Assembly (NCBI GenBank): GCA_964470485.1
Contig: CAYYCT010000003.1
Location: 1-42,702, forward strand
Origin: an uncultured Candidatus Saccharibacteria bacterium
GTDB lineage: Bacteria > Patescibacteriota > Minisyncoccia > Phycocordibacterales > UBA5272
Direction of reading: 5' to 3'
Length of the DNA: 42,702 nucleotides
Position numbers and translations under genes: made by a program. The notes under the pieces were generated by a model. That model was given only the letters and a program-made list of their open reading frames with translations. It did no database searches and was not told the origin of the DNA. This document shows, one piece after another, positions 1,802 to 29,976 of the stretch. Positions within the stretch are counted from its first letter, which is position 1; each line of letters opens with the position of its first letter.

Positions 1802-4800
1802 TTATGGTGTTACAGGGGTATCGGTTGTCGATGTGTCATTCTCTGATGATGTTGCTTGAGGGTCAATTGCTGGGGGATTTTCACCAGCAACACCATCATC
1901 TGATGATGTTGCTGTTGGTAATTCTTGTGGCGTAGTTGTAGCATCATCACTTGGTGGTGTCGATGAAGATGTTCCAGTCCCTCCACTTCCATCAGTTGGA
2001 CTGCCGTCTCCGATATTTCCAATCGGTGGCTGCATAAGAGGGATTGAAGATGTGTTTAATATGCTCTCAACCTGATCCCCATCAAGACAAACGTTCTCAC
2101 CATTTGCTTTCTTAATACATACTTTATCAGTATAAATTTCTTTTGCAAAAAGCTTATCAAAATACCCCGCAACAGCTCGCGTGGTAAGCGAAAGATATTC
2201 TACAACAACAGTATTTCCATGAATAAGCTTGTCGAATAGTGTTTGGTATACACTACGAGTCGGCGCTACAAAAGTGTCTGATGATGATGCAATTACTACA
2301 AGCCCTTCAGTGGATGAGAGGGTTAGTACTCGATGCTTATTTTCTACAACCATAAGTACTTTTGATGATGTTGCATCGAGTGGTGCATCTGAAATAGCGC
2401 GACCGATAGAATAGTTCGTCTCAAGTGCCTTCATAGCATATCCAGGGGTCGATGTTGAGATAGTAAGGTAGTCGCCTTGCTTAACAACACCATTTTCATT
2501 TGTCACAAATACTGGAACACGACCAGAAAATGCTATAGGTACTCCATTTTTTGTATTGCCTCCAAGAAGAATACCTGGGCGAGTTGAAATAACTCCGAGA
2601 GCCTCATCTCCAGCGTGCGCCTTTCTTACTGTCGACATCTGATAGGTATTAGTAGGTGTCTGCCCGTTGTCGAGCATCCACTCTTCTGTTGTTGAAGAAA
2701 ATGCTACAACAGTTCCTGCTATAAGAGGTTCGCTGGCTGGGTAATTTTCTGCAACGTCAGCAGGGGTACCTATAGTAGTCACACCATCAGTAAATATATC
2801 CCCATTTGCTTTAACTTTAAATACAGTATCTCCGGTACTTCCTACGTCAGAAATAATTCTTAACATGTCGGTACTCGTTGCAGCTGTAGCCTTATAAATA
2901 TCAAGAGTAGAGCCTGGTGTACTCGTTCCTATTCCAACATTACCATTTGCGAGAATTTGGAAAAGTGTCGCACCGGTTGAAGACGAGACTGCAAAAGGAT
3001 TAGTCGTTGACGTTCCTCTTACATAAAGTGTCTCTGCTGGAATAATGTCAGTCCCTACACTAACCCTCCCACGATTACTAGCTAAGAAAATATCCCCTGC
3101 TGAAGTCCCGTGTCCTCCATTTATAACCACATTACCTCCAGTATAAAGATCAGATGCTCCCGCTGTGAGAGTAATTGATCCTCCAGATGTAAGAGCTCCT
3201 GTTGACCCTCCCGCAGTAAGAGAAACATTTCCCCCAGCATTACCATTCCCAGAAATTAGATTAATATGCCCACCAGGACCGGCACTACCATTACCTCCAG
3301 TAACAGTAAATGTTCCACCGGTATTACCAGTCCCCCCAGTAAAAGAATATGCTCCTCCAGTACCTGCCGTGCCGTGCCCGTTACCACCTATGAATGAAAA
3401 TCCGCCACCATTACTTGCTGCGCCTGATCCATAATTCCCCCCCACAAATGAATACCCTCCACCATTACCAGATGTCCCAGCTATTGGTCGAGCATCAATG
3501 ATGTTAGGCGCTTGACCCGTTACTGAAGTGCCCCCAAGAGAAAGAAGCGCGGAGAATGATGATGTAGCAATCCCTACGTTACCGTTCTGAAGAATACGGA
3601 AGAGTGATGTCCCGCTAGAGGAAGCAATTTCTAGCGGGTTAATACCTCCTGTACCTCGTAATGTAAGTGTATAGTTAGGAGACGTAGTTCCTATACCAAC
3701 ATTTACCGCGTCAGTTGAAGTGCCACCAAGTACAATTGAGTTAGATAATGCTACTTTTGCGTTCTTTCCGATAGCAGTAATATTAGTAAGAGCAGTAGAC
3801 GATGATATTGTTGCATCACGAGAAGCTTGATAACCAATAAATGTTGAATAATTATCTATATAGCTTCTTTCATTAAGAAGCACACCAAACCCAGCTGAGC
3901 GTCCTATTGCTGTATTTCCATCTCCATATAGTAATGAATATAGCGCACCTCCACCAATACCAATATTGTAACTACTTGTAGCAACTGAAAAAAGACTGTC
4001 TGCGCCAATTGCTAGATTATGATTACCTGATGTATTAGTACTTAGTGTTCCATCTCCAATTGCGGTATTATTGTCTCCTGTAAGATTGTTTAAAAGTGCC
4101 TGCCTACCAACTGCGATGTTATAGTCCCCTTGTGTGTTATATCGAAGAGCCTCCGAACCAAATGCGGCGTTAGAATTACCAGAATTAGTGTTACTAAGGG
4201 CTCTATATCCAAATGCAGTATTTCTTGTATTTGTCGCTGATGATCCGGCTAAATAGCCAAGAAAAGTATTATCTTGTGTAGTTGATGCAAACATAAACTT
4301 AGCACTGTTCCAGTACATCCAGCTATCTCCATTACTTTTAGCTGCACCAAAATTTACTTCCCCAAAACTTGATGTTGCAGTTGTTGACGCAGCAATGAAA
4401 ATGTCTGCACTTGTAATCCCAGATACAGTTAGACTGTACGGAGGAGTCTTAGTTCCAATTCCAAGACGTGTATTAGTATTATCCCAGAAGAACTTAGAGT
4501 TATTTTCTGAAAGAAGCCCCCCTGTACTGATAAAAGGAATAGAACCAGAAGTAAAGTTAGAGAGATAAAAATTTCCAGATGTGGTAAACGCAGTAGCTGA
4601 TGCTGTAGCAAGCGTACTCTGTCCTGTGACAGAAAGAGAACCAACTGAAGCAGTTACAGACGAGAGGTTAGTTGAAGTAGCGTTTGTCGTCGAAGCATTT
4701 GTCGTAACAAGATTGGTTGTTGTTGCATTCGTAGCAGTAAGGTTAGTGAAGATTGCAGTAACAGCATTTAAGAGTGTGGAGTAGAGATTGGTTGCAGTTA

Positions 4801-5596
4801 ATCCAGTAGAGGAAGCGGTGGTAAGAGAGGTTTGGCCGGTAAATGTTTTATCTCCAGAAAACGACTGAGATGTAGTTGAAATAACTCCACGAGCACTTAC
4901 CCCCGCGTTTGGGATGTTAAGCGTATGGGTTATTCCAGATGAAGAAATAGTAGCATCACTCCCAGAAGCCCCGATAGCAAAAAGTTGTGATGCTCCAGAA
5001 AGCCCATTTAAAGAAGTTATCCCAGCCCCAGCAATTCCAAGCGCACTCCATGCAGACCCATCGTATACATAAAGTTGATTTGTTGTTGTATTAAAATACA
5101 TTTTCCCTTTTGCTGTAGCAAGCCCTGTACTTGTGGTGCTGGTAAGTGCTCCATAAGAAACCATCGAGAATGGTGCCATGCCTATTTGTGACCTGATCCC
5201 CCCAGCAAGAGTCATTTCGCCAGTAGAAAATGGTGCTCCAATTTCAACGGTAACATAATACGCTTTATCAAAATCAAGATCAGAAAGAGAAACGGCAGCA
5301 GTACTCCCATTAACATCCCCAACCTGACCGATTGGAATAGTGAAATAACCGTTTGTAATAGTAACCGTTCCTTCATTTTCTTCAAATAAAAGCACTCCAG
5401 AAGTTGGATCATCATAAACCCTAACAATAACAGATGCTGACCCAGACTGTGCAACTCCGCTAGAATTTGTAATGAACCCTTGATAGTTAATAAACGTTGG
5501 AGTTGATGCAGAGTAGGCGACGATTACCCCTCCTAAAATCAAAGAGGAAAGAAGGGCTACAAAAAATCTTTTTTTCAAAAAGAATGCTGACTGCAT
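1802..5596 (-). CDS. giant secreted repeat protein (~1264 aa) with tail-fibre/adhesin-like repeats
   Basis: The ORF track extends to 5719, but Met42 (ATG at 5596) begins a signal peptide: MQSAFFLKKRFFVALLSSLILGGVIVAYSAS. It contains NTAxG/NxAxG repeats (NTAFGYRALSNTNSGNSNAAFGSEAL..NIAVGRQAL..NTAIGDGTL). The module LRGT..NP..SSSG..LF.IL.NGNVGI.TS is duplicated. There is a Gly-rich GGxGxxG block and an S/T/P/D-rich C-terminal tail. Confidence 0.75.
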   Translation of the reverse strand: MQSAFFLKKRFFVALLSSLILGGVIVAYSASTPTFINYQGFITNSSGVAQSGSASVIVRVYDDPTSGVLLFEENEGTVTITNGYFTIPIGQVGDVNGSTAAVSLSDLDFDKAYYVTVEIGAPFSTGEMTLAGGIRSQIGMAPFSMVSYGALTSTTSTGLATAKGKMYFNTTTNQLYVYDGSAWSALGIAGAGITSLNGLSGASQLFAIGASGSDATISSSGITHTLNIPNAGVSARGVISTTSQSFSGDKTFTGQTSLTTASSTGLTATNLYSTLLNAVTAIFTNLTATNATTTNLVTTNASTTNATSTNLSSVTASVGSLSVTGQSTLATASATAFTTSGNFYLSNFTSGSIPFISTGGLLSENNSKFFWDNTNTRLGIGTKTPPYSLTVSGITSADIFIAASTTATSSFGEVNFGAAKSNGDSWMYWNSAKFMFASTTQDNTFLGYLAGSSATNTRNTAFGYRALSNTNSGNSNAAFGSEALRYNTQGDYNIAVGRQALLNNLTGDNNTAIGDGTLSTNTSGNHNLAIGADSLFSVATSSYNIGIGGGALYSLLYGDGNTAIGRSAGFGVLLNERSYIDNYSTFIGYQASRDATISSSTALTNITAIGKNAKVALSNSIVLGGTSTDAVNVGIGTTSPNYTLTLRGTGGINPLEIASSSGTSLFRILQNGNVGIATSSFSALLSLGGTSVTGQAPNIIDARPIAGTSGNGGGYSFVGGNYGSGAASNGGGFSFIGGNGHGTAGTGGAYSFTGGTGNTGGTFTVTGGNGSAGPGGHINLISGNGNAGGNVSLTAGGSTGALTSGGSITLTAGASDLYTGGNVVINGGHGTSAGDIFLASNRGRVSVGTDIIPAETLYVRGTSTTNPFAVSSSTGATLFQILANGNVGIGTSTPGSTLDIYKATAATSTDMLRIISDVGSTGDTVFKVKANGDIFTDGVTTIGTPADVAENYPASEPLIAGTVVAFSSTTEEWMLDNGQTPTNTYQMSTVRKAHAGDEALGVISTRPGILLGGNTKNGVPIAFSGRVPVFVTNENGVVKQGDYLTISTSTPGYAMKALETNYSIGRAISDAPLDATSSKVLMVVENKHRVLTLSSTEGLVVIASSSDTFVAPTRSVYQTLFDKLIHGNTVVVEYLSLTTRAVAGYFDKLFAKEIYTDKVCIKKANGENVCLDGDQVESILNTSSIPLMQPPIGNIGDGSPTDGSGGTGTSSSTPPSDDATTTPQELPTATSSDDGVAGENPPAIDPQATSSENDTSTTDTPVTP

Positions 5597-5806
5597 GAGA
5601 GTGAGGTACAGGATAAACCCATTGTATAAGTATATCGTGAAAAGTATTGAAAAATATGGACATAAAAGAGTTCTGGGGATAACATGTGGCTGATTAAAAA
5701 AAACTTTTTTCGCAATCATAGATAAGCTAGACCTACCCGAAAAAACCTATAAAAATATACCTTTAGAGGATGTCTCTCAATCATATCTGAAATCATTTTT
5801 TACCAT

Positions 5807-15672: not shown

Positions 15673-15763
15673 TCTAACATAGATTGTATTGTTTTTGAAA
15701 AATACAAAATACATCAAAATAAATATGAATAGAGAAACTTTTTTCTCCTATAGAAACAAATCA

Positions 15764-15787
15764 GGGCGCGACCTGACGGTCGCGCCC
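15764..15787 (-). terminator. GC-clamp hairpin terminator at the left edge of the GC-rich cassette
   Basis: GGGCGCGACC-TGAC-GGTCGCGCCC, 6 nt after the stop of ORF 15794-16135, with T-rich flanks on both strands. Confidence 0.65.
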
Positions 15788-15793
15788 TTTTCC

Positions 15794-16135
15794 CTACTGA
15801 CGAACTTCTTCCTCTGTGGGAAGATACACCCCTTCTTCCAGGTTCATCATCGCCCCATGTGCTTCACACTTTCGCAAGTATTTCACATAGTACGAGACAG
15901 GGGTGTTACGTTCGCCATACTGCACCCAGATCAACTGATACAGACTTTGCAGTCCATCAACGGCACCATGCAGGAACGCATAGGCAATCAGCTGCTCTGG
16001 AGTGATCTTGTCTTCCTCCTCTATCCGAACCACCTTCAAACGAGGCTTAGTTGTATCCGGATGAGGTATTGTCTTCATGGGTTCCTTTCCCAACGAACGG
16101 TTGAAATCTTCATGCAAAACAAGGAGTTTTATCAT
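15794..16135 (-). CDS. acidic hypothetical protein (113 aa; alternative start 16078 gives 94 aa)
   Basis: About 48% GC by hand count. ATG 16135 is preceded by AGAAGAGG, and ATG 16078 by GGAAAGGAA. It is driven by TTGACA-16 nt-TATAAT. The tracked start at 16249 would read through the promoter. No family recognised. Confidence 0.65.
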   Translation of the reverse strand: MIKLLVLHEDFNRSLGKEPMKTIPHPDTTKPRLKVVRIEEEDKITPEQLIAYAFLHGAVDGLQSLYQLIWVQYGERNTPVSYYVKYLRKCEAHGAMMNLEEGVYLPTEEEVRQ

Positions 16136-16148
16136 GAAGGCCTCTTCT

Positions 16149-16214
16149 ATTATAGCAAATATAGACTTTTTGTCAATAGTATCTATTGACAAATATACTA
16201 TATTATGATATGAT
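16149..16214. promoter_or_regulatory. back-to-back divergent promoters sharing a perfect palindrome
   Basis: Minus strand: TTGACA (16171-16176 rc), 16 nt, TATAAT (16149-16154 rc). Plus strand: TTGACA (16186-16191), 17 nt, TATGAT (16209-16214). The palindrome TTTGTCAATAG-TAT-CTATTGACAAA (16169-16193) contains both -35 boxes. Confidence 0.6.
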
Positions 16215-16263
16215 ATAAAACAGTTAGTTCCCTCAACTCGCACAACCAATAAGGAGAGTCCCT

Positions 16264-16773
16264 ATGTGTGTGCTGATCGTCGAAAGCACTCCCGTTCGCT
16301 GTGCTTGGAACGGTGACGAAACCAAGAGGCCGAAGAATCGGCGCCGCAAGAAGGCAGGGAGTGTCGAGCAACTGGTCGAAGTTCGTAAGCCTTCGCTTGC
16401 AGACCTAGACCGTCAGCGCTTCTATCCGACGGCGGCGTCCCGGCACGTTTTCGTGCGGCCGGAGACCTCGCGTCTGGCTTTGGCCGCCAAGAACCAGTAC
16501 GACGAGTGTGAGGACATCCCCGTCGTCGGGTCCGCCCAGCGTGTGCGCATGCTCCCTTCCGACGAGAAGAAGGGGCGCAAGCATGTCTGCCGTCGCATCG
16601 GCATCGGGAAGCGCATGCCCGTCACCCGATTCATCATGGGTGTCAATCGCACGATCTTCGAGTGCGAAGACTACCACTACGTTGGTGGCCAGAAGCGCAG
16701 TGCCAGAATGCCGGAGTACAAGGATCGGCGTTCGAGTAAGTTCCGTGGCGCGATGAAGACCATCATCAACTGA
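16264..16773 (+). CDS. basic R/K-rich hypothetical protein (169 aa) in a ~60% GC gene
   Basis: AAGGAG lies 7 nt upstream of the ATG. I counted 307 G+C in 16261-16770 (510 nt). G/C is enriched at third codon positions in this frame. There is an internal repeat (ECEDIPVVGSAQRVRMLP / ECEDYHYVGGQKRSARMP). No family recognised. Confidence 0.7.
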   Translation: MCVLIVESTPVRCAWNGDETKRPKNRRRKKAGSVEQLVEVRKPSLADLDRQRFYPTAASRHVFVRPETSRLALAAKNQYDECEDIPVVGSAQRVRMLPSDEKKGRKHVCRRIGIGKRMPVTRFIMGVNRTIFECEDYHYVGGQKRSARMPEYKDRRSSKFRGAMKTIIN

Positions 16774-16782
16774 GGCACCAAC

Positions 16783-16805
16783 AAGGAGAATCCATGTTGA
16801 GATAA
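16783..16805 (+). other. SD-led 3-codon mini-ORF (ATG TTG AGA TAA)
   Basis: AAGGAG (16783-16788), 5 nt, ATG at 16794, TAA at 16803-16805. It begins 21 nt after the stop of the 169-aa ORF. Confidence 0.3.
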
Positions 16806-16932
16806 TCATTGCGCGGGCACTCAACCCGGCAAAGGATAGAGGAGTCGCGCCCTCGCGGTTAGAGTTCTTGGTATCCTAAAAGCCTCGCAAGCGAATCGGA
16901 TATCTCGGTCAAAAAAAGACCAATCTAACCAA

Positions 16933-16966
16933 CCGCCGAAACGACGAGAGTCGCCGGCGGTTTTTT
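16933..16966 (+). terminator. rho-independent terminator at the right edge of the GC-rich cassette
   Basis: CCGCCG-AAA-CGAC-GAGA-GTCG-C-CGGCGG followed by TTTTTT. Confidence 0.7.
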
Positions 16967-17182
16967 CATTTGTATATCGTATTGTATTTGCAACCCTACC
17001 CTGGCTTTTTCATGAGAAGCAACTCGTCACAGCGCGACCGGCGCGAGGCGGAAGAAAATTTTCAGCAGAAAATTATTCTGTTTGCTCCGATGAAAAAGTA
17101 AAAATATAAAACAATTCATTAAAAAAACGTTTGCTTTTTATATCAAAGTATTGTAGTATGAGGCCATTCTATTAAAAGAAAA

Positions 17183-17263
17183 CGTCTCGGACTTAATCCT
17201 CACAGTGCTGGTGTACATCAGTACTGTGAGACCCCGAGACGAGCACACGTCCACCATCGTGTG
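17183..17263 (+). promoter_or_regulatory. structured 5' leader of rpsA
   Basis: Long hairpin: CGTCTCGG (17183-17190) pairs with CCGAGACG (17234-17241), enclosing CTCACAGTGCTG/CAGTACTGTGAG. A second hairpin is CACACG..CGTGTG (17244-17263). A possible TTGCTT-17 nt-TAGTAT promoter lies upstream. Confidence 0.4.
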
Positions 17264-17278
17264 GACTATTATATTTTT

Positions 17279-18432: not shown

Positions 18433-19428
18433 TCAAACCAGATAGTCCTTTTTCTTTCTACCCACATAATAAGTCAACCCGGATTGAACTATTGAAAATA
18501 TTCCGTGTATGTTTTCTTTATTACGCGAAACAATCAGATTTTCATTTTTACCAAATTTAATAGTAATTTGATCGTCTTCGCTAGGCGGGTTCCTCTCGAG
18601 TAATTCTTTTACCTCTTGTATTATTACTGAAGAATAATGGACTTTAATGTTCTGATCAAAATAATATTCTTCGCTAGTTAATGGTAGTTGCTCAAACTGA
18701 GCAGGTTTTATTGCTCTTATTTTTTCTAAACCAAAAAATATCTCGTCATATTTAGCCCAATCATCTTCTGTATGATCACGCCATTTAGATTCATTGTCTT
18801 TATCTAAAATAACTGACCTCCCAAAATCAATAACATAGGGCAAACCAGACTCTAAATCAATCATGACATTTCTAGGGTAAAGGTCTTGGTGTGCCACCCC
18901 TCTTTCTTTATGCATTGCATCAATAAAATCTTCTAAGGCTTTATAAAATAACTCGTAGTCAAAACCATCTGGCAACTCTTTTGTGCCGTTAAAAACATGT
19001 TGTAAATTAACTGCCTCTAACTTTTCCATAATAATAATTGCTGTATCCCCTGTTTCAATACACATTTCTGCAACCGGAGCTCTACAGCCCAGACGACTAA
19101 GCCCGTGAAGCCTTTCCATTATTTGAAACTCTTGAAGCGGAGTCCTTCCTAAATTAAACATATCTGAGTTTTTAGACAAATGTCTATTTTTCATTATCTT
19201 CAAACATCCCCCATTTCGATCTCCAAGGTCATATACCTTACCTGCCCCACCATGATCAATATAATTATCATTATCCTCAACAAGATGAGCTAGGTACTCG
19301 AGATACTTTTTTGCATTATTTTCAGCTTCGCTTTCATGGCCAGAATAAACAAAATCTTCAAAAAAAACCGTAGATATTCTGTTAGGCTCACCTTTTTCTC
19401 CTTCTATTGAAATTTCAGTTTTAAACAT
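18433..19428 (-). CDS. protein kinase-like fold protein (331 aa)
   Basis: Gly-rich loop GGAGKVYDL, candidate VAIK-type lysine in CLKIMK, catalytic loop HQDLYPRNVMI and DFG motif VIDFGRS. No TM or sensor domain seen. Confidence 0.65.
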   Translation of the reverse strand: MFKTEISIEGEKGEPNRISTVFFEDFVYSGHESEAENNAKKYLEYLAHLVEDNDNYIDHGGAGKVYDLGDRNGGCLKIMKNRHLSKNSDMFNLGRTPLQEFQIMERLHGLSRLGCRAPVAEMCIETGDTAIIIMEKLEAVNLQHVFNGTKELPDGFDYELFYKALEDFIDAMHKERGVAHQDLYPRNVMIDLESGLPYVIDFGRSVILDKDNESKWRDHTEDDWAKYDEIFFGLEKIRAIKPAQFEQLPLTSEEYYFDQNIKVHYSSVIIQEVKELLERNPPSEDDQITIKFGKNENLIVSRNKENIHGIFSIVQSGLTYYVGRKKKDYLV

Positions 19429-28461: not shown

Positions 28462-29976
28462 ATGGAACCTAATGATCAAGAAAAAATAGGTCTTTTTATA
28501 AAAAAATTGCGTGAGGAGCGTGGGATGACACAGGGCGATTTTGCAAAAAAACTAAAAACGTCTCAGTCGGCCGTAGCCAGAATAGAGTCTGGAAATCAAA
28601 ATGTCACAATAGAACAACTCATGAAAATGGGGGAAGTTCTTAAGCATAATATCGTTAGCATCCAAGATACAATAGATTTCAAGGTTGAAGGTGGTAGAAA
28701 ATTACGAGGAAGTATATCCACTAATACATCAAAAAATGGAGCTATTAATATGATGGTTGCTTCCTTGGTTAACTCTGGTACAACCATTTTGCGCGATATT
28801 CCTCATATTGAAGAAGTTAATCGCTATAAAGAGCTTTTAGAGAGTCTCGGTGTAAAAATTCGTTGGATATATAACGATACAGCTCTTGAAATTACCCCAC
28901 CAAAAAAACTATCTTTTTCAAAAATAAACAGAGACGTAGCCGAGAAAATCCGTTCGTTTACATTTGCTGGAGCATTTATTCATTTTAGTGAAAAATTTAA
29001 TCTCCCTCATTCTGGTGGCTGTAAAATGGGCGAACGAACTGTTGCTTCTCATAAATTTGCACTTGATTACCTTGGTGTTTTAGTTGAAACAAAAGAAAAT
29101 CATTATGTTGTCTCGCACAAAAAACTACGCCCAAATACTATCCCCCTTTATGAATCGTCTGATACCGGTGCAATAACAGCCATCATCGCTGCTGCTCGCA
29201 TTCCAGGAAAAACAACAATTATGTTTGCTCCTCCAAATTATCAGGTGCAGGATGTCTGTTTTTTACTTGAACAATTTGGGGTAACAATAGAAGGCATTGG
29301 GACAACGACACTCGTCATCCATGGCAAAGAAACCATCAATGTGCATGTTGAACATTATAATAGCGAAGACCCTATCGAAAGTATGTTTTTCATTGCTGCC
29401 GGGATTGTTACAAAGTCAAAATTAACAATAAGACGATGTCCTAGTATGTTTATCACTCTTGAACTTGAAAAACTGAAACGTATGGGGCTTATCTACTCAC
29501 TTTCAAAACAGTATCTTGCTAAGAACAATAAAACAGCGCTTGTTGATGTCACCATTTCCCCGTCATCTCTTACTGCTCCACTAGATAAAATACACACTCA
29601 ACCTTTCCCTGGAATCAACAATGATAACCTACCTTTTTTTGTCCCCATTGCTTGTGTTGCGTCTGGTCAAACACTTATTCATGATTGGACCTGGGAGAAT
29701 CGAGCTATTTATTTTACTGAACTTAATCGTCTCGGAGCAGATATTAAACTCCTCGATCCTCACCGAGCTCTTGTTACTGGAATAAAAAAATTACGCGGCG
29801 CTCAGATTGTTTCCCCTCCAGCGCTTAGACCTACGGCTATTATTTTAATCGCAATGCTTGCAGCAGAAGGAACTTCAATGCTTCGTAATGTCTACTCTAT
29901 AAAACGTGGTTATGCTGATATTGCTGAGCGTCTTAATAGTATTGGAGCAAAAATTACCGTACTGCGAGGGGTATAA
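28462..29976 (+). CDS. murA: XRE-type HTH domain fused to UDP-N-acetylglucosamine 1-carboxyvinyltransferase (MurA-like)
   Basis: Residues 1-65 are IGLFIKKLREERGMTQGDFAKKLKTSQSAVARIESGNQNVTIEQL (HTH_3-like). The rest is MurA-like: GGRKLRGSISTNTSKNGA, the active-site loop LPHSGGCKMGERTV (equivalent to Cys115), PFPGINNDNLPFF, and ALRPTAIILIAML. Confidence 0.75.
   Translation: MEPNDQEKIGLFIKKLREERGMTQGDFAKKLKTSQSAVARIESGNQNVTIEQLMKMGEVLKHNIVSIQDTIDFKVEGGRKLRGSISTNTSKNGAINMMVASLVNSGTTILRDIPHIEEVNRYKELLESLGVKIRWIYNDTALEITPPKKLSFSKINRDVAEKIRSFTFAGAFIHFSEKFNLPHSGGCKMGERTVASHKFALDYLGVLVETKENHYVVSHKKLRPNTIPLYESSDTGAITAIIAAARIPGKTTIMFAPPNYQVQDVCFLLEQFGVTIEGIGTTTLVIHGKETINVHVEHYNSEDPIESMFFIAAGIVTKSKLTIRRCPSMFITLELEKLKRMGLIYSLSKQYLAKNNKTALVDVTISPSSLTAPLDKIHTQPFPGINNDNLPFFVPIACVASGQTLIHDWTWENRAIYFTELNRLGADIKLLDPHRALVTGIKKLRGAQIVSPPALRPTAIILIAMLAAEGTSMLRNVYSIKRGYADIAERLNSIGAKITVLRGV

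Follow-up and report, generated by a model that had tools for sequence, protein, structure and literature searches.

The 42,702 nt stretch of DNA analysed in this work (hereafter, the window) is taken from contig CAYYCT010000003.1 of an uncultured Candidatus Saccharibacteria bacterium. Between the gene of an MBL-fold protein and rpsA it carries a GC-rich locus, which the original prediction, made from the letters alone, had described as a foreign, toxin–antitoxin-like cassette of two genes, named A and B here. This description as a whole was not borne out, in view of the fixed synteny of the locus, the lack of a donor and the dispensability of gene A. The locus is an ancestral, hypervariable locus of Saccharibacteria, and its core is an orphan basic protein encoded with inverted codons (gene B) together with a new pseudoknotted RNA. 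Both of the predicted genes are present, but the most conserved component, the structured RNA located 3′ of B, had been overlooked. Both the ancestral status of the locus and the presence in it of a new structured RNA are nearly certain.

The G+C content (GC) of 510-nt segments taken over the 42.7 kb averages 39.7%, with a standard deviation (sd) of 3.7%. The segment 16261–16770 is the maximum, approximately 5.6 sd above the mean, and is the sole stretch exceeding about 50%; the count of 307 G+C in these 510 nt (60.2%) given previously was reproduced exactly. The excess is located at the third codon positions of a plus-strand open reading frame (ORF), gene B (16264–16773, 169 amino acids (aa)). 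The GC of this gene is 60% in total and 0.59, 0.46 and 0.75 at the first, second and third codon positions (GC1, GC2 and GC3), respectively, while GC3 in gyrA and rpsA is 0.29–0.30. The minus-strand ORF of gene A has a GC of 47%, close to the earlier estimate of about 48%.

The codon usage of gene B is the inverse of that of the host. Pooled over 11 B alleles and compared with host genes, the usage is 36% versus 1% for CTG (Leu), 23% versus 1% for CGG (Arg), 56% versus 9% for GGC (Gly), 36% versus 5% for TCC (Ser) and 86% versus 37% for AAG (Lys), and the third-base G+C is 74% versus 28%. The same composition is found at all loci carrying the gene, with a B GC of 53–64%, a GC3 of 68–83% and flanks of 25–45% GC. 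The mRNA of B folds better than dinucleotide shuffles in nine of nine alleles (z-scores from −0.2 to −5.7); the z-scores of five host gene segments are +0.1 to +0.7. The minimum free energy per nucleotide is −0.32 to −0.49 for B versus −0.22 to −0.25 for the host segments, a difference of about 1.5-fold.

Several features of the sequence indicate that B is a real protein-coding gene. GC3 exceeds GC1, which exceeds GC2; synonymous changes dominate the conserved motifs, and most differences between the window and locus L001 in the best-conserved stretch of B are synonymous third-position changes. The Nei–Gojobori ratio of nonsynonymous to synonymous substitution rates (dN/dS) is 0.16–0.56 for the closer B pairs, with synonymous sites saturated, and every B allele has a Shine–Dalgarno (SD) sequence and an ATG start codon. 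Antisense ORFs of 139–328 aa crossing B were rejected as genes: as the GC3 peak is on the B strand, they are regarded as shadow ORFs, which are expected in GC-rich DNA.

The B protein has an isoelectric point (pI) of 10.3 and a net charge of +19, as strongly basic as had been predicted, and the alleles of the family range from pI 9.2 to 10.3 and from +8 to +25. The conserved motifs are GS.ER.PM, RRIGIGKR.P and RKPKYKD.RS.FRVKH, and two alternative N-termini occur, MCVLI...AW.GD or M.VS..MSIEAYLASKNLT. The protein had also been characterised as containing cysteine; these residues are not conserved within the family and neither are the histidines, which ruled out a zinc finger. A CsrA-like identity was considered because of a loose similarity of the N-terminus (MCVLIV...GD) and many GGA motifs in the RNA, and was rejected at an hhalign probability of 1.3%. 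The AlphaFold2 model of B, built on a 12-sequence alignment, is poor, with an overall predicted local distance difference test score (pLDDT) of 60.6. Only the long beta-hairpin at residues 107–143 is modelled confidently (pLDDT 85–95); the low confidence elsewhere predicts that most of B is disordered. Neither A nor B had been recognised initially, and searches of Pfam, PHROGs, PADLOC and NCBIfam gave no match for either gene A or B, including the other B alleles; the profile of the B family likewise matched no sequence in PDB. The identity of B to its relatives is 29–44% over the longer matches. For flanking proteins of the same relatives, the identity is 87–92% for GyrA, 91–94% for RpsA (full-length), 82–88% for the MBL-fold protein and 79–84% for Pth.

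Positions 16778–16966 of the plus strand, at the 3′ end of the predicted B transcript, form a conserved RNA domain that was delineated using nhmmer and a covariance model, R1. With nhmmer E-values of 1e-31 to 1e-54 across loci, it is far better conserved than either protein. R1 detects one copy in the window (164 bits). Of the 12 B loci, 11 gave a match, a single copy each and in every case immediately 3′ of B; the match is weak in L018 and L019, and L009 is the locus in which it was not detected. The fold z-score of the region is −3.5. No Rfam 15 family matches 16778–16966 at the gathering threshold or at E ≤ 5, and in the whole window only tRNAs pass the gathering threshold. All plus-strand ORFs within 16774–16966 are shorter than 20 aa. 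To count covariation, nine RNA sequences were aligned with MAFFT. In total, 83% of the paired cells are complementary, compared to 24–39% when the partners are slid by 1–3 columns, and 27 pairs covary with both sides changed, compared to 4–8 in the slid controls. The observed values were reached in 0 of 500 shuffles, and the G–U pairs fit the plus strand only. The RNA sequences (9–11, depending on the analysis) come from one narrow clade, and the controls reduce but do not remove the effect of shared ancestry. Taken with the absence of coding potential, these comparisons indicate a structured non-coding RNA with compensatory helix changes beyond the controls.

The RNA is composed of five helices, a pseudoknot and a terminator helix. 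Hairpin P1 (16811–16830) covaries across loci, its variants being CGGG/CCCG, TGGG/CCCA, GCCAGG/CCTGGC, GCCGGA/TCCGGC, GACC/GGTC and GGTC/GACC. P2 (16832–16837 with 16864–16869; 95% paired) encloses P3 and the 5′ strand of the pseudoknot. P3 (16839–16842 with 16851–16854) is 97% paired with three of its four pairs covarying, and its loop contains a conserved UCGC. The pseudoknot is formed by GGTTAGA (16857–16863) and TCTAACC (16924–16930), where 96.8% of cells pair and four of seven pairs covary. The corresponding strands are GATCAAG/CTTGATC in most relatives and GATCAGA/TCTGATC in L012, and the window is compensated at four positions on both strands. P4 (16870–16876 with 16898–16904) is of variable length and all eight of its pairs covary; the folds of individual sequences agree on P4 and on P5 (GGTC-A7-GACC, 16907–16921). 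The domain ends with terminator helix P6 and a U-run (16933–16966; helix 16933–16960), CCGCCG..CGAC-GAGA-GTCG..CGGCGG followed by T6. The inner hairpin of P6, CGAC-GNGA-GUCG, is nearly invariant across loci, which exceeds the conservation that a plain terminator needs. Covariance-model realignment left the register of P1, P4, P5 and P6 unfixed in a short-hairpin subgroup, and the pair counts therefore understate these helices.

At its 5′ edge (16783–16805), the RNA carries a strong SD sequence, AAGGAG (16783–16788), and a mini-ORF, ATG TTG AGA TAA (16794–16805). This SD duplicates the ribosome-binding site of B itself (repeat D5). An SD followed by a mini-ORF of 2–5 sense codons was found in 10 of the 10 loci examined, and the encoded peptides (MLR, MLLR, MSL, MMQRI, MS, MRL, MRV, MMRR, MSCCR and MER) are not conserved in sequence, which suggests ribosome loading, rather than the product, as the function. 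The RNA holds three purine-rich SD-like tracts and two anti-SD-like tracts, so alternative conformers are possible. In the region of 16832–16845 and 16857–16870, the 3′ strand of P2, which reads ACUCUUG in most loci, is also complementary to the 5′ strand of P3, UAGGAGU, and partly to the SD, CAAGGAG. Competition of the SD with P3 for CUCC is not supported by the covariation seen in the window (GAGG/CCTC), and no anti-terminator pairing conserved across loci was found. The RNA contains no tandem repeats, and its interpretation as a tandem-repeat antitoxin was dropped for this reason.

A HMMER search with the B profile against 1.84 billion representative proteins revealed a family of 12 members, all of which were located and all of which lie in AT-rich flanks. 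Loci L007, L011, L012, L014, L019, L020 and L024 share the gene order of the window as far as their contigs extend: gyrA, a small transmembrane protein, the MBL-fold protein, a variable small gene, B, the RNA, a variable segment, rpsA, a gene x, pth, lepB and hisS. On the short contigs of L009 and L018, too, B is followed by the rpsA leader. Two loci come from GTDB representatives named "uncultured Candidatus Saccharibacteria bacterium", in agreement with the earlier suggestion of an epibiont-type organism. The same layout recurs in at least eight independent assemblies from ENA (metaSPAdes, MEGAHIT), JGI, Logan and NCBI metagenome-assembled genomes; this diversity of sources and assemblers excludes mis-assembly and answers the question of chimeric junctions that had been raised for this block. 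No B homologs were found in phage genomes, plasmids or IMG/VR, and BLAST gave no DNA match of the whole transcript in phages or plasmids. Metagenome scans gave no relatives with the B peptide patterns and, with the DNA pattern of the RNA, a single chance match (L013) inside an unrelated coding region.

In all eight relatives with preserved context, the site is not empty, as it would be for an island, but occupied by a B homolog. The window contains no integrase, reverse transcriptase or phage gene, no attC-like site, no tRNA junction and no island-type flanking or direct repeats. The 15 kb to each side of the locus are free of mobility genes, and even the nearest tRNAs lie at a distance of more than 15 kb. 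A mobile element bounded by repeats D2 and I2 was considered; these are weak AT-rich matches only, and the conserved synteny makes an insertion of this kind unnecessary. The speculation on a high-GC donor is not supported, in view of the fixed site in relatives and the lack of homologs outside AT-rich genomes in the databases searched. The presence of the same locus in all relatives, combined with saturated synonymous divergence, shows that B is ancient at this site, yet it has not drifted to the host composition. Comparative sequence data thus show an ancestral, chromosomally fixed locus specific to one clade of Saccharibacteria, not an imported cassette.

The constant core of the locus consists of the promoter, B and the RNA. 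In the close relatives L003 and L004, the DNA matches the window at 85% identity over the MBL-fold gene, A and the promoter, after which a different B allele follows. This may be either strain-level heterogeneity or a result of assembly breaks at a hypervariable gene. On the reverse strand of L003 (1–60) and L004 (1–100), B begins with VCVFRKVGGGIV and then the two differ, the L004 allele continuing with a (Gly-Val)n run.

The leftward gene, A (15794–16078, minus strand), encodes a small, fast-evolving protein and is supported by the ORF list and by homologs. Its length is probably 94 aa, starting from the ATG at 16078; the in-frame ATG at 16135 would give the 113 aa assumed initially. The downstream start is favoured because it is preceded by the SD GGAAAGGA, because the segment between the two starts carries a 1-nt indel in L006 and because the changes in that segment are non-synonymous. 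The acidic character claimed for the protein holds, but only mildly (pI 5.6, net charge −3). The AlphaFold2 model of A has a pLDDT of 49 and is unusable. Close homologs (P0004–P0006) adjoin the MBL-fold gene in relatives with 85–92% identical DNA, and profile matches were obtained in L019 (E = 1e-11), L024 (8e-5) and L007 (4e-5, in the second round), so the A–B pairing recurs elsewhere, as had been proposed for checking. In L014, gene A is reduced to a 40-aa stump; in L012, it is absent; and in L011 and L020, unrelated small ORFs occupy its position. B is intact in all four loci, and A is therefore not its obligate partner, contrary to the idea of an obligate, oppositely charged pair of the toxin–antitoxin kind.

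Genes A and B diverge from back-to-back promoters, whose near-consensus quality, predicted earlier, was verified. The promoter of A (16149–16176, minus strand) is TTGACA-16-TATAAT with 12 of 12 consensus positions and an upstream TG, and the promoter of B (16186–16214, plus strand) is TTGACA-17-TATGAT with 11 of 12 positions and an extended −10 TG. The scan found 7 promoter-like sites versus 2.2 expected from shuffles. Both −35 boxes lie in a perfect 23-nt palindrome (16170–16192), TTGTCAATAG-TAT-CTATTGACAA, which may also serve as an operator. The inverted pair TTGTCAA-N8-TTGACAA is retained in 8 of 12 loci (the window, L007, L008, L011, L012, L014, L019 and L020), near-consensus in most of them and altered at one or two positions in L007 and L019. 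L012 and L014 keep it although they have no intact gene A, and the −35 box of B is conserved in 12 of 12 loci. The 5′ untranslated region (UTR) of B (16215–16263) includes the SD AAGGAG (16251–16256), 7 nt ahead of the start codon; the SD sites listed previously are all present. An nhmmer profile of the 5′ UTR region, built from the window and L001, also detects L003, L004, L008 and L009. In every assembly, the conserved AT-rich promoter and 5′ UTR run without a break into the GC-rich ORF B.

Signal scans agree with the claim that the block forms a discrete unit, bounded by two terminators and served by a bidirectional promoter of its own. The terminator hairpin of gene A (15763–15788, minus strand), AGGGCGCGACC-TGAC-GGTCGCGCCCT, has 11 bp, nine of which are G–C, and is also listed as perfect inverted repeat I8. 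GC-clamp terminators are indeed present at both outer edges, except that the right one is the last helix of the conserved RNA of about 190 nt and not a stand-alone terminator. The 10-mer GTCGCGCCCT of the gene A terminator (15779–15788) recurs in the P3 region of the RNA (16844–16853), which is probably due to chance.

We tentatively favour, at somewhat less than even confidence, a protein–RNA module that is encoded in cis on a highly structured message rich in GC. Two transcripts are predicted to start at the palindromic, near-consensus bidirectional promoter. The leftward one would carry the small, dispensable and fast-evolving gene A. The rightward one, of about 750 nt judging from the promoter and terminator positions, would comprise B, whose product has the conserved long beta-hairpin and a basic motif at the C-terminus, the SD with the mini-ORF and the RNA with its intrinsic terminator. 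B may be a nucleic-acid-binding protein, as suggested by its basic and disordered character with one rigid hairpin, and its partner or regulator may be the RNA domain located in cis on its own message. The two could then constitute a small ribonucleoprotein or an autoregulatory module, but a specific partnership of B with this RNA is a doubtful proposition. The SD and mini-ORF may hold a ribosome at the 5′ border of the RNA domain, so as to stabilise the domain, protect it from 5′–3′ decay or govern its folding. The high GC and inverted codons would be kept by selection at the RNA level (structure, stability) or by translational throttling through codons that host genes nearly never use, rather than being a remnant of transfer. 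The rapid divergence of A and B against the conserved RNA fits a role in genetic conflict or host interaction.

Several points weigh against such a module. The z-scores of mRNA structure are modest for most B alleles. The structure model of B is of poor overall quality, and its Foldseek comparison with PDB gave nothing below E = 2. The covariation was obtained on 9–11 related RNAs only, with controls that keep phylogenetic non-independence, and common descent in a single narrow clade may be the only reason why B and the RNA adjoin and co-occur. The RNA might also work by itself, as a 3′ UTR stabiliser, a small RNA, a riboswitch or a ribozyme. Selection on synonymous sites of the strength needed for a GC3 of 68–83% would be unusual in a small-genome symbiont. 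A bolder version, in which the RNA or a B–RNA particle is delivered to the host cell and is translated or active there as an episymbiont nucleic-acid effector, appears highly improbable. It would draw on the reversed codon usage, which is similar to that of the high-GC Actinobacteria that usually serve Saccharibacteria as hosts, as well as on the stable structured transcript, the strong ribosome-binding sites and the conserved RNA domain. A milder version would have the RNA belong to a novel type of small ribonucleoprotein, or be a ribozyme or riboswitch not described before.

Two other explanations leave the locus native and assign it a different function. In one, which we consider unlikely, B is a toxin or abortive-infection effector whose antidote is either A (type II-like) or the RNA (type III-like), and fast evolution results from an arms race with phages or the host. 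It would agree with the small size and fast evolution of both A and B, with a shared palindromic promoter region that could be an operator, and with strain-to-strain hypervariability (the window is unlike L003 and L004 here, and contig ends fall at this site). Rare codons would hold a toxic protein at a low level, and RNA pseudoknots are the antitoxins in type III systems such as ToxIN. However, type II toxins and antitoxins are co-transcribed, usually from overlapping genes, and co-occur invariably, whereas A and B are divergent with separate promoters, and B is intact in the four loci without an intact A, so A is not an essential antidote. For the type III version, the RNA has no tandem repeats and is downstream of the protein gene, not upstream. 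No component matches PADLOC, Pfam or NCBIfam, including any toxin fold or antitoxin DNA-binding domain for A or B (the AlphaFold2 models being uninformative on this), and B is predicted to be mostly disordered, with no enzyme fold. The other explanation, also rather improbable in our estimation, regards the RNA as a riboregulator independent of B (a riboswitch, ribozyme, small RNA or 3′ UTR stabiliser/terminator element) and B as a distinct orphan that evolves fast and may have originated recently within GC-rich sequence. The much better conservation of the RNA than of B speaks for it, as do the many invariant unpaired nucleotides and the pseudoknot, which are typical of ligand-binding or catalytic RNAs, and the small genes (C, described below, or an RHH-like ORF) that follow the RNA in several loci. 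An SD-like ribosome-docking site that stabilises a downstream RNA is known in Firmicutes (STAB-SD of cryIIIA). A riboswitch has its aptamer in the 5′ leader of the regulated gene and an expression platform that switches between two structures; here, the element lies 3′ of B, and an alternative ACUCUUG/UAGGAGU pairing is possible. Against a riboregulator independent of B, the RNA terminates strongly and no alternative anti-terminator pairing is conserved, and the downstream content varies, consisting in the window and L007 of just rpsA and its own leader. Moreover, the RNA was not seen apart from B among the loci gathered here, and no Rfam riboswitch or ribozyme model matches it at E ≤ 5.

The remaining explanations attribute the composition to a foreign source. 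If the two genes had recently been transferred horizontally as a cassette from a donor of high GC, such as an actinobacterial host, this would account for a GC of 60% versus 40% and a GC3 of 75% versus 30%, and the preference for CTG, CGG, GGC, GCC, ACC, GTC and TCC resembles that of high-GC bacteria. Such a transfer is nevertheless very improbable: the gene is old at a site shared by all relatives and has not drifted to the host composition, and the AT-rich promoter and 5′ UTR are conserved, native sequence. No homolog was found among the high-GC organisms, phages, plasmids and IMG/VR contigs searched, and the window holds no integrase, tRNA junction or island-type flanking repeat. An assembly chimera or contamination, with a GC-rich fragment joined into an AT-rich contig, would be suggested by the abrupt change of composition only. 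Its probability is negligible, as the same junctions and gene order occur in independent assemblies from different samples and pipelines, with the conserved AT-rich leader continuous into the GC-rich ORF in each.

Saccharibacteria are obligate epibionts with tiny genomes, and the maintenance of the locus at one site across a clade of such organisms indicates that it is probably useful. The inverted codon usage persisted while B diverged to about 30% identity, which breaks the rule that a deviant GC signifies recent transfer, and island callers based on composition would mislabel this ancestral locus as foreign. This implies a hitherto unrecognised force acting on one transcript, be it selection at the RNA level, translational throttling or use in another cell. 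If the B–RNA particle, or a role in conflict with phages or the host, is real, it would represent a new small system in a group for which few molecular mechanisms are known. To our knowledge, no described gene keeps codon usage opposite to that of its genome across species without a donor lineage, and we know of no described RNA with the architecture of 16778–16966. Literature searches (GC-rich or structured RNA in Saccharibacteria, the RNA core sequence, SRP278252) gave nothing relevant.

Variable small genes accompany the core. Some loci have an optional GC-rich ORF of 46–63 aa, B2, between B and the RNA (L001, 712–852; L008, 662–853; L019, 2541–2699), which is absent from the window. It ends with PWQR or PWKR, and the motif CCCTGGCAACGGTRA is conserved at its end. 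In some loci, the RNA is followed by gene C, which encodes an acidic protein of 62–89 aa (VDAKMRAFPFRG) with an acidic C-terminus (L011, 6801–6989; L012, 7057–7326; L019, 3028–3225). L014 and L020 have a different acidic protein of 75 aa at this position, and the window and L007 have neither. B2 and C gave no match in Pfam, PHROGs, PADLOC or NCBIfam.

Downstream of the RNA, 17005–17098 is a non-coding block conserved in relatives, with a covarying hairpin (GAAAATTTTC-AGCA-GAAAATT in the window, AATCCGCC-AGTA-GGCGGAT in L012 and ACTTTTC-ACCA-GAAAAGT in L014) followed by a conserved TTCGATGAAAAAG. In L012, this block is upstream of B rather than downstream, and the locus is thus rearranged there. 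The region 17120–17278 comprises the rpsA promoter and 5′ leader, with approximately 71–81% nucleotide identity in relatives, a long near-perfect hairpin (17199–17230) and a second hairpin (17249–17266) just before the start codon; it may be an S1 autoregulatory leader. Between rpsA and pth, a hypervariable kinase-like gene (18433–19428, minus strand) with Pkinase/Kdo/APH matches is 33% identical in L012 and is replaced by an unrelated ORF of about 300–360 aa in L007, L011, L014 and L020.

The window as a whole is core chromosome. It contains tsf, rpsB, genes for a release factor and L25, gyrA, the MBL-fold protein gene, rpsA, the kinase-like protein gene, pth, lepB, hisS, ybeY, ftsA, ftsZ, trxB, tfoX, an Nramp transporter gene, murA and type IV pilus genes. 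The product of the gene at 28462–29976 (plus strand) is an unusual fusion, in which a protein of the MurA/EPSP-synthase family carries an HTH_3 (Cro/C1-type) domain at its N-terminus. A 1305-aa ORF (1802–5719, minus strand) has no Pfam match, and its part at 3.0–3.5 kb is the only other region of the window exceeding 48% GC in 510-nt segments.

The locus can be compared with several known kinds of systems. Type III toxin–antitoxin systems (ToxIN, CptIN, TenpIN) similarly place a small protein gene and a pseudoknotted RNA side by side on one transcript, with a terminator, and evolve fast. Their RNA, however, is a tandem-repeat RNA upstream of the toxin and is set off from it by the terminator, an arrangement not seen here, where a single multi-helix domain of about 190 nt without repeats lies downstream. 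Their toxin is a folded ToxN/AbiQ-like endoribonuclease, whereas B is predicted to be mostly disordered and has no PADLOC or Pfam match. Genomic islands and integron cassettes share with this locus a compositionally deviant gene between conserved flanks and alleles that differ between strains; they are distinguished by an integrase, an attC-like site, a tRNA junction or direct repeats, in contrast to the one family at one fixed site, without a donor pool, described here.

Autoregulated RNA-binding proteins, such as those of ribosomal-protein operon leaders or the phage coat protein with its operator hairpin, likewise combine a basic protein with a structured RNA on the same transcript, and the location of B next to rpsA adds to this likeness. 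Their RNAs are 5′ leaders or initiation regions and their proteins belong to universal, slowly evolving families, whereas the present RNA is 3′ of the ORF and B is a clade-restricted orphan with 29–44% identity between genus-level relatives. STAB-SD elements and attenuator leader ORFs also have a strong SD without a real gene just upstream of a structured RNA and a terminator, but they are 5′ leaders acting on a downstream gene, while here the element follows the gene and the terminator ends the transcript. The large RNAs OLE, GOLLD, ROOL and the raiA motif are similarly GC-rich, multi-helix, covarying RNAs in low-GC genomes, detectable by composition. In comparison with them, the RNA described here is smaller, has no Rfam match, is fused 3′ of a coding transcript and begins with a functional-looking ribosome-binding site and a mini-ORF. 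As it lacks the defining features of each family testable here, the locus stands outside the known kinds, and the RNA of 16778–16966 is a previously undescribed one that merits a family description.

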